Origin: an uncultured Candidatus Saccharibacteria bacterium
GTDB taxonomy: Bacteria > Patescibacteriota > UBA1384 > JAMDBS01 > DAOVQR01
Reading direction: 5' to 3'
DNA length: 64,000 bases
Assembly: GCA_964481135.1 (NCBI GenBank)
Contig: CAYZSW010000004.1
Coordinates: forward strand, 20,110-84,109
Part shown: piece by piece, positions 6,938 through 7,420 of the stretch
How positions within the stretch are numbered: position 1 is the stretch's first letter
How the letters are laid out: each line of letters opens with the position of its first letter
The notes under the pieces: model-generated
What the model was told of the DNA's origin: nothing
What the model saw: only the letters and a program-made list of their open reading frames with translations
Database searches by the model: none
Made by a program: the position numbers and the translations under genes

Positions 6938-7420
6938 ATGAAAAAAATTACTAAAATATTTCTAATTATTCCATTATTTATTTTTGTATTTTTTGTGTTT
7001 CAAATTACTATTGCTTCAACAAGAAAATCTCCAGAAATTTATTTTACTAATTCAAATGCTACAGACCCGTTTGATAAAAATTTTGAAATATCTGAAATAG
7101 AATATGGAAAGTCATTTAATTTAGTTGGTGAAAATTTTTCTGTAAGCAAAGATGTGCATATATATTTAAATCAAGAATATATTGGTGTAAAAGAAATCGA
7201 GGATGGCAAATTTAGAGGTATTATGAATATTAAACAGGAGGAAGCAGAGAACAAAACATATTCTATAAAAGTTGATGGTGCTGCCAGAGGTGAAACATTG
7301 GAAAAAGAAATTTATGTTAAGTTGCCATCAGTAATTCCTTCTTGGGCATATATAATTGTTGGTCTTATTGTGATTGGCTGTATTGTTTATTTCATCTATC
7401 TAAAAATTTTTCAAGAATAA
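6938..7420 (+). CDS. small secreted protein with C-terminal TM anchor; shares a SPEIYFT-type domain with the C-terminus of the giant protein at 13999-19584
   Basis: Signal/TM at N-terminus, TRKSPEIYFT...IYL...Y.IKV.G.A.GE...IYVKLP, C-terminal hydrophobic helix YIIVGLIVIGCIVYFIYL; RBS aggagga upstream. Confidence 0.6.
   Translation: MKKITKIFLIIPLFIFVFFVFQITIASTRKSPEIYFTNSNATDPFDKNFEISEIEYGKSFNLVGENFSVSKDVHIYLNQEYIGVKEIEDGKFRGIMNIKQEEAENKTYSIKVDGAARGETLEKEIYVKLPSVIPSWAYIIVGLIVIGCIVYFIYLKIFQE

Follow-up and report, generated by a model that had tools for sequence, protein, structure and literature searches.

What do a protein of 160 amino acids (aa) and the far end of a giant protein have in common, and why do their genes lie at one locus? 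The question is raised by a stretch of 64,000 nucleotides (nt) from an uncultured Candidatus Saccharibacteria bacterium (contig CAYZSW010000004.1 of assembly GCA_964481135.1; hereafter the window), in which the C-terminus of a 1,861-aa giant (13999–19584, plus strand) repeats the motifs of a small protein encoded upstream (6938–7420, plus strand). A preliminary description of this DNA took the shared region for a modular membrane-anchoring or sorting domain carried by the first and last genes of an operon. The analysis reported here leads to a modified reading, to which we assign a probability of about 0.7. The shared region would be a C-terminal anchoring module, composed of an immunoglobulin (Ig)-like sandwich, a transmembrane (TM) helix and a tail, which serves as the membrane-proximal pedestal and stop-transfer anchor of Sec-exported surface proteins. 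The small protein would be an independent paralogue that consists of the module only, and the giant would belong to a 12.4-kb cluster inserted at the junction between the small gene and a tRNA-Val gene.

The motifs described for the small open reading frame (ORF) and for the last ~135 codons of the giant agree with the translations, and their homology is borne out by pairwise alignment. BLASTP of the 160-aa protein against the giant returned a single significant high-scoring segment pair with 37 of 125 positions identical (30%), 57% positives and a composition-adjusted E of 5e-12, spanning aa 30–154 of the small protein and aa 1758–1878 of the giant, in the numbering of an ORF that is also open from 13909. 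The giant most likely begins not at 13909 but at 13999, the start annotated in public assemblies, from which a signal peptide (MKKILSITLF...) is read. For a shuffle test, the signal peptide and the TM helix were cut off, so that hydrophobic composition cannot add to the score. The remaining soluble parts (small aa 29–130, giant aa 1757–1857) gave a Smith–Waterman score of 127, against a mean of 29.1 (standard deviation 5.5, maximum 57) over 5,000 shuffles, corresponding to z ≈ 17.9. Profile alignment of five small proteins with seven giant C-termini by hhalign yielded a probability of 99.2% and E = 9.6e-20 over 128 columns. A merely compositional or chance resemblance, e.g., between two AT-rich genes with hydrophobic ends, might be suspected in a genome of ~30% GC in which a hydrophobic helix terminates both proteins. 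However, none of the 5,000 shuffled helix-free pairs scored as high as the real one (z ≈ 18), and the BLASTP and hhalign values (the latter E ≈ 1e-19) point the same way, as do two independent structure predictions that concur. The sequence comparisons thus refute this explanation, the probability of which we regard as negligible, and the similarity outlives the shuffling that the preliminary description had named as a way to refute it.

No third copy of the module was found in the window by a two-sequence hidden Markov model run on the six-frame translation (next best E = 0.35). At the DNA level, the stretches encoding the SPEIYFT motif (7026–7048 and 19181–19203) are identical at 21 of 23 nt, though the two domains share only 30% identity as proteins. 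This match, which is the sole DNA-level repeat flanking the 12.4-kb cluster, is probably due to codon bias.

Structure prediction, which had been proposed as a check, modelled both regions as an Ig-like β-sandwich followed by a helix. The AlphaFold2 model of the small protein (pLDDT 78.9) contains a helix at aa 4–27, eight β-strands between aa 33 and 128, and a C-terminal helix at 135–159, while that of the giant's last 144 aa (pLDDT 86.3 overall, >90 across the domain) shows the same eight strands and then a helix. The input multiple sequence alignments were shallow, with 4 sequences for the small protein and 9 for the giant module. The sandwich corresponds to aa 29–130 of the small protein (7022–7327) and to aa 1757–1857 of the giant (19177–19479). 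In a Foldseek search against the PDB, the top matches of the models were solely Ig-like sandwiches (E = 5e-4 to 7e-3; target-normalised TM-score up to 0.59), including the MG domains of α2-macroglobulin and C3, the N-domain of chitinase A, the Haloferax S-layer protein csg, Fn3, titin, RhoGDI and SoxZ, and no particular Ig family stood out among them. The predicted module has the ~100 aa and the two-sheet sandwich of 7–9 strands that characterize the Ig-like/E-set superfamily. Its helix follows at 7340–7402 in the small protein (aa ~135–155; AlphaFold, conservation among five small proteins) and at 19486–19542 in the giant (WIYYVLAVLFVLALGFVIY; AlphaFold, Kyte–Doolittle). The module is therefore best described, on the strength of these models, as a ~100-residue Ig-like (E-set, IPT/TIG-like) β-sandwich with a single TM helix within ~6 residues and a short cytoplasmic tail.

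The sequence of this sandwich is not that of a catalogued family. When both proteins and 10 family modules were scanned with Pfam and NCBIfam models at E ≤ 10, no match reached its cut-off, and no TIG (PF01833), Big_7 or Big_3_5 match appeared in any of the 10 members even at that threshold. A sequence-profile search of the PDB gave nothing significant, the best match being the IPT/TIG-type domain D of cyclodextrin glycosyltransferase (CGTase; E = 0.12). The module resembles the bacterial Ig/E-set families (IPT/TIG PF01833, Big_7 PF17957, Big_3_5 PF16640) in being a sandwich of 7–8 strands and ~90–100 aa, it follows the IPT/TIG rhythm G-x-t-v-x-i-x-G-x-n-F-x-x-S-K ... v-x-i-y-l ... Y-x-i-K-V, and its profile weakly retrieves proteins with Big_7, TIG and Big_3_5 repeats. 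However, it occurs in single copy and always right before a TM helix, whereas those families form tandem arrays, and it is limited to a narrow Patescibacteria lineage without any Pfam match. It is a divergent, previously undescribed sequence family of the Ig-like/E-set fold; what is new is the sequence family, whereas the design, an Ig-like domain joined to a TM anchor, is commonplace.

Searching 1.84 billion representative proteins with a profile of the domain returned 18 matches. The strong ones were the small protein and six clusters of giants, namely the window giant itself (P0004) and proteins of 1,024 aa (P0005), 2,427 aa (P0006), 2,411 aa (P0007), 2,199 aa (P0009) and 2,297 aa (P0010); the weak ones were proteins with tandem bacterial Ig domains of the Big_7, TIG, Big_3_5 or cadherin-like type. 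With a further 1,933-aa protein adjoining P0009 (locus L012; L and P numbers denote related loci and proteins), the module ends at least seven giants of 1,000–2,900 aa from related metagenomic bacteria. In 7/7 giants the domain stops ~35 aa short of the C-terminus and a hydrophobic 19-mer (Kyte–Doolittle 1.5–2.9) comes next, and in all of the giant relatives the chain then ends in a tail of 8–15 aa with 4–5 Lys or Arg. The window giant thus consists of a signal peptide, a large orphan ectodomain, the Ig-like domain, the TM helix and a basic tail (KTKNKKPQQDVVI, 4 K/R; 19543–19581), which is predicted to be cytoplasmic. The Ig domain is the best-conserved region of the giants, with 33–81% aa identity among them compared with 24–34%, or no possible alignment, elsewhere in the proteins. 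Its DNA is 75–78% identical between genomes whose housekeeping neighbours are 64–79% identical. In the numbering of the module, its conserved face comprises Y16, T18, S49-K50, K89, G92, G96-E97 and K101.

Several other giants are single chains, and the separate genes of the window appear to correspond to their two ends. The N-terminus of the 802-aa protein (7935–10343, plus strand), a putative cytoplasmic stretch followed by a TM signal-anchor, is homologous to the N-termini of P0006, P0009, P0010 and P0024/P0023, and the last ~900 aa of the window giant are homologous to the C-terminal parts of single-chain giants. These homologies indicate that the separate genes represent the two ends of what are single proteins of 2,200–2,900 aa elsewhere. 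The single-chain giants are accordingly predicted from their sequences to be membrane-anchored at both ends, by the N-terminal TM anchor and by the Ig–TM end. The P0007 locus appears as 526 + 2,411 aa in L011 (3449–12246) and as an intact protein of 2,932 aa (P0023) in L014 (10001–18799); given an identity of 99.99% and a single indel between these loci, the split is a frameshift or a sequencing error.

Both anchors also stand out in the DNA. The window cluster and the cluster of L009, which comprises a 601-aa and a 1,024-aa gene, are unalignable except for two tracts, and identity falls to random within a few bases at 4/4 of their borders. The first tract (19163–19497) is 97% identical (324/335) to the P0005 gene of L009, its codon differences are 9 synonymous and 2 non-synonymous, and it runs from AQDNTES to NWIYY, i.e., from the Ig ectodomain to the first TM residues, with its 3′ border at the start of the TM helix. 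The second tract (7929–8174, effective bounds ~7945–8165) is 96% identical to L009 7958–8203 in the otherwise unrelated 601-aa gene and covers the first 80 codons of the 802-aa gene, encoding the cytoplasmic N-terminus, the TM anchor and, at its end, an FGPRAD motif. The Ig domain DNA of the window is also 75% identical to that of L011 and L014, the giant gene of which is otherwise highly diverged. These alignments suggest that the giant's Ig ectodomain is exchanged as a discrete DNA cassette and that the N-terminal anchor constitutes a second sharply bounded conserved module.

The recurrence of the module at the C-terminus of every giant, together with its exchange as a cassette, makes membrane anchoring its most likely role, and the "modular anchoring" of the preliminary description stands on both counts, the recurrence and the cassette borders. 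The proposed mechanism begins with Sec export, which would be directed by an N-terminal signal peptide in the small protein and the window giant, or by an N-terminal signal-anchor in the single-chain giants of other loci. The C-terminal hydrophobic helix would then halt translocation while the tail remains cytoplasmic, and the Lys/Arg-rich tail of the giants would be kept inside according to the positive-inside rule. The Ig domain would thereby be placed directly on the outside of the cytoplasmic membrane and support, like a pedestal, an ectodomain of huge size and high variability. Because bacteria of this kind are without an outer membrane, a TM helix would offer a simple means to retain surface proteins. 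The features of a type I single-pass layout, namely a signal peptide, a C-terminal TM segment and a positive-inside tail, are predicted from sequence and structure models. The predicted Sec signal peptide of the small protein covers aa 1–27 (6938–7018; sequence, AlphaFold helix 4–27) and consists of MKKITK, a hydrophobic core and the end ..TIA (MKKITKIFLIIPLFIFVFFVF..TIA, with cleavage expected before S); that of the giant reads MKKILSITLFILVFITLTALVKA, with cleavage expected before D. In the Candidate Phyla Radiation (CPR), Ig-like or fibronectin type III (FnIII) proteins with C-terminal TM helices have been proposed as membrane tethers of pili in cells without an outer membrane (bioRxiv 10.64898/2026.03.03.709456), and CPR membrane proteomes are enriched in giant proteins that are thought to build the host-contact surface or mediate attachment (PMC8080830).

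The small protein has its own history. The window copy, which is preceded by a strong AGGAGG ribosome-binding site 5 nt upstream, has four orthologues (P0002, P0003, P0025 and P0026) with 41–73% identity to it, and in all five small proteins (the window copy being P0001) the predicted mature part is the module alone. The only relative with published taxonomy, CSMAG_1580 (GCA_030628575.1), encodes a small protein 57% identical to that of the window and belongs to the Patescibacteria class UBA1384 (PMC10491686 supplement); judged by this relative, the window organism would be a member of that class or stand close to it. Scans with family patterns recovered only an already known relative from genome contigs and nothing from metagenome or viral contigs, giving no sign that the module is phage-borne. 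The preliminary description attributed the same C-terminal helix plus basic tail to both proteins. The helix is indeed present in both, whereas the basic tail exists in the giant only, since the small protein ends in ..YLKIFQE with one Lys and one Glu. In 5/5 small proteins the C-terminus is an invariant Y-x-[KR]-x-F-Q-E-COOH (7385–7417 in the window), and their TM helix is as conserved as their ectodomain, which suggests a specific intramembrane or cytoplasmic partner. The small clade is 24–31% identical to all giants, showing it to be an old paralogue. The sequence relationships accordingly identify the small protein as an old, independently conserved, stand-alone paralogue and, because of its own conserved TM helix and K-x-F-Q-E tail, as a putative separate membrane protein rather than a subunit from the giant's operon.

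These tails bear on the sorting function that had been offered beside anchoring. The module could be a cleaved sorting signal of the sortase, exosortase or archaeosortase type, the TM helix and basic tail of which are removed by a transpeptidase that links the protein covalently to the wall or a lipid. The giants' hydrophobic helix and Lys/Arg-rich tail at the extreme C-terminus do resemble such signals (TIGR01167; PEP-, GlyGly-, PGF- and GG_III-CTERM), weak matches to TIGR01167 LPXTG_anchor and NF041738 GG_III-CTERM were obtained for some members (E = 0.003–0.18), and a sortase of 362 aa is encoded two genes past the P0005 giant in L009/L017. However, the weak matches cover only model positions 7–34, i.e., the TM segment and tail and never the motif, and all are below the curated cut-offs. 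TIGR01167 aligns from model position 9–12 on with 12.5–13.1 bits vs. a cut-off of 15.9, and GG_III-CTERM, alone among the other NCBIfam CTERM models, reaches 14.8–17.5 bits vs. 22 in 2/10 members over the TM segment only; Por_Secre_tail (type IX secretion) matched none of the family members. No LPXTG-type pentapeptide precedes the TM helix, the sequences there being HPRNYNW, RPINSSW, HPTNYNN, KPRSFNF, RAKKSYQ and LPSVIPSW. The pre-helix pattern [IV]-x-[KRH]-P-x-x-x-x-[WY] is not invariant, and no LPXTG, LAXTG, PEP, GG or PGF motif is present. A positively charged tail follows the hydrophobic segment in 7/7 giants (4–5 K/R) and in 0/5 small proteins. The conserved TM helix of the latter, with its invariant K-x-F-Q-E end, would be senseless in a discarded segment, which argues for a retained, functional membrane segment. 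A sorting signal is thus quite unlikely, and with no motif to recognise, this half of the preliminary description finds no support.

Whether the two genes form a unit can be judged from their surroundings. From left to right, this part of the window carries C39 peptidase, RNase Y, YmdB, tRNA-Arg, DUF881, DUF881, AI-2E transporter and small gene; then follow genes for a 127-aa coiled-coil protein, the 802-, 473- and 741-aa proteins and the giant, and finally, all on the minus strand, tRNA-Val(GAC) (19821–19897), a 330-aa ORF, a DsbA-like protein and a P-type ATPase. The small gene is a conserved member of the housekeeping block RNase Y–YmdB–DUF881x2–(AI-2E) in five lineages; the products of the genes adjoining it upstream, of the AI-2E family and DUF881, are themselves membrane proteins. 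L018 has the block from C39 to AI-2E and the small gene, with tRNA-Val ~38 nt later, and L001 has DUF881–DUF881–small gene, with tRNA-Val 8 nt later and then DsbA and the ATPase; a giant cluster is present in neither. This adjacency identifies 7422 to ~19820 (right end approximate), which comprises the coiled-coil, 802-, 473- and 741-aa genes and the giant gene on the plus strand, as an insertion between the small gene and tRNA-Val, adjoining the 3′ side of the latter. Conversely, the giant clusters of L009, L010, L012, L013 and L014 have no small gene adjoining and lie in unrelated contexts: between TetR and LepA in L009, between polysaccharide deacetylase and GH42-like genes in L014, and between bPH_2 and LTD-nuclease genes in L010, the latter two genes being adjacent in L014; L012 holds two tandem giants. 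The description of the two genes as the first and last of an operon is therefore not upheld, as the small gene occurs without the cluster and clusters occur without the small gene; their adjacency appears to stem from insertion of the cluster beside tRNA-Val.

An integrase-borne tRNA island was considered for the 12.4-kb cluster and rejected. A Pfam scan of the cluster proteins found no integrase or recombinase domain, no att-like or tRNA-derived repeat was seen, and the GC content does not deviate (0.302 in the cluster vs. 0.296 in the rest of the window). The sequence at 19701–19726, which might pass for a tRNA 3′ fragment, more probably represents a terminator-like hairpin downstream of the giant gene. 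The 330-aa ORF (20010–21002, minus strand) between tRNA-Val and the DsbA-like gene has an N-terminal TM segment and no Pfam match; it is missing at the syntenic position of L001, which marks a second indel at tRNA-Val.

One orthologous locus records the loss of a cluster. In L016, which carries the P0002 orthologue, the region of AI-2E and the small gene is 78% DNA-identical to the window. At L016 1331–1453, only 17 nt, the homologue of window 7421–7438, separate the stop codon of the small gene from the second half of a giant-type Ig domain. This half begins abruptly, with AATTTA/ATTT microhomology at the junction, and is 93.5% identical to the P0007 gene. L016 is best explained by these alignments as a deletion derivative that lost the equivalent of window 7439–19314. 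The apparent in-frame continuation of its small gene (FQE*NIHFILDDKF) was set aside as a coincidence, given the homology of the first 17 nt past the stop codon to window 7421–7438.

Such deletions ending inside the Ig domain suggest how the small gene itself might have arisen, i.e., as a functionless by-product of a giant gene whose collapse fused the signal peptide to the 3′ Ig–TM end. Consistent with this, the giants carry an A-x-A-x-D motif immediately ahead of their Ig domain, and this motif aligns with the region in which the signal peptide of the small proteins would be cleaved. However, five small proteins with 41–73% identity retain the signal peptide, the domain, the TM helix, the invariant C-terminal motif and synteny, and the window copy has its strong ribosome-binding site, which together indicate purifying selection. 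The 24–31% identity to the giants would moreover make such an origin ancient and leave it silent on present function. A by-product is hence very unlikely, more so even than a sorting signal. The A-x-A-x-D motif of the giants is found at 19150–19176 in the window and in P0005–P0010 (KAYAQD, VHAQD, KAKAAD, KAKAQD, TAKAAD); it is preceded by an amphipathic stretch and could be a processing site or a fusion relic.

If the small protein is functional, it could be a dedicated partner of the giant that pairs with it through the homologous Ig domains, by hetero-oligomerisation or docking, so that the two genes form one functional unit. The two are homologous and adjacent in the window, the cluster remnant of L016 shows the same adjacency, the Ig domain of the giant is as unusually conserved as expected of a partner-binding surface, and the filament of the Pam pilus of CPR bacteria has been proposed to be docked by an FnIII protein with a TM anchor (bioRxiv 10.64898/2026.03.03.709456). 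Against this stand the small genes of L001 and L018, which have no giant cluster beside them, the five loci with giant clusters and no adjacent small gene, and the ratio of one small-protein cluster to six giant clusters among the 1.84 billion representatives. A dedicated partnership is, in our view, doubtful.

The reading of the module as a pedestal and stop-transfer anchor, which we continue to prefer, has several points weighing against it. The topology, the cleavage of the signal peptide and the surface exposure are deduced from sequence and predicted structure, and the alignments behind both AlphaFold models are the shallow ones given above. Simple anchoring also leaves unaccounted for the much higher conservation of the Ig domain compared with the rest of the giants, as well as the strong conservation of the small protein's TM helix and K-x-F-Q-E tail. 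The constancy of the Ig domain likely reflects an additional specific role, e.g., oligomerisation or the binding of a conserved partner. The small paralogue could be such a partner, although the distribution data do not require it.

A third conserved tract lies at the left end of the insertion. The DNA at 7422–7963 is 94.6% identical to L011 2936–3477 and L014 9488–10029 and contains the coiled-coil gene (7472–7855) with the intergenic regions on its two sides, up to nt 29 of the 802-aa gene. In both genomes it starts one base past the stop codon of the upstream gene, which is the small gene here and polysaccharide deacetylase there. The L009, L014 and window fragments have no housekeeping genes in common, and the 94–97% tracts may have arisen either within one genome, by gene conversion of paralogous loci, or through exchange among strains that occur together. 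A wider scheme can be put forward tentatively, as possible rather than probable, in which the Ig module, the N-terminal TM-anchor module and the coiled-coil gene are the conserved handles of a recombining, hypervariable giant-surface-protein locus of UBA1384-type Patescibacteria. Between invariant anchors, whole ectodomains with a coding capacity of 1.6 to nearly 4 kaa (thousand aa), spread over one to four genes, would be replaced or built anew, and the clusters would be mobile between sites, forming a cassette system by which these episymbionts change their host-attachment proteins; the Ig pedestal would stay constant through docking to a conserved cell component, possibly the small paralogue.

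The lifestyle of Patescibacteria (CPR) is one of attachment to other cells. Their giant surface proteins are leading candidates for the recognition of hosts, although almost none contains recognisable domains. The Ig pedestal with its TM end-piece and the matching N-terminal anchor provide a handle for finding such giants in metagenomes. Taken together, the two anchors would define a topology in which both ends are in the membrane and the variable part is looped outside, and they set a clear boundary between the constant and variable parts of the giants. A fast turnover of these loci through recombination, such as an arms race with hosts would be expected to produce, is shown by the base-sharp tracts of 94–97% identity in otherwise unalignable genes, by the insertion at tRNA-Val and by the remnant of a deletion. 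More interesting than the module itself is this recombining, relocating giant cluster, with constant anchors and hypervariable content, beside tRNA-Val and an old stand-alone paralogue.

The design has parallels in other systems. Ig-like domains are likewise stacked above a C-terminal membrane anchor in type I membrane receptors and in csg of Haloferax volcanii (PDB 7ptp), which had the highest query-normalised TM-score (0.51) in the Foldseek search. The csg protein is processed at a PGF-CTERM signal and lipid-anchored; it has no sequence relationship to the module, and the likeness is one of analogy only. The Pam pilus (PamC, PamD, PamR; bioRxiv 10.64898/2026.03.03.709456) also belongs to CPR bacteria and combines a β-sandwich with a C-terminal TM segment that tethers surface structures to the sole membrane, a likeness that is architectural only. 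Unlike the Pam proteins, the module lacks pilin, chaperone and donor-strand features and is a complete sandwich that ends giant non-filament proteins; no pilin-like or PapD-like genes are annotated in the 12.4-kb cluster. The giants of Vampirococcus lugosii (PMC8080830) are comparable in their size (1.4–4.2 kaa), predicted membrane localisation, reduced genome and proposed role in host recognition. In contrast to the present giants, they come from another CPR class, no shared annotated domains were detected, and a conserved Ig–TM end is not described there.

Several further observations concern the cluster and its surroundings. The giant gene of the window contains a near-perfect tandem duplication of 861 bp (287 aa; 17473–18265 and 18334–19126, with 5 mismatches over 793 aligned bp), and P0004, from a public assembly (1,574 aa, 99% identical), is the window giant without it; the difference is either a strain polymorphism or an assembly difference. 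P0009 contains a significant Peptidase_M23 domain. The 741-aa protein (11766–13991) has at aa 561 a sequence VHEYMH...EG that resembles the HExxH...EGFA mid-regions of P0005, P0007, P0009 and P0010 and suggests a metalloprotease-like module. Homology between these regions was not accepted: the context of the motif is similar, but the pairwise comparisons fall short of significance. At a distance of ~8 kb from the P0005/P0022 locus lie a Cas12a (Cpf1) gene and a Y1 (IS200-like) transposase (L009 1–1867, L017 1–1876). The window as a whole also carries a bacterial class A RNase P RNA (62323–62681, plus strand), a tmRNA with the tag ANLVQKVKNAFASLTPSLALA (28918–29274, minus strand) and nine tRNA matches, including a cluster at its left edge (1–807).

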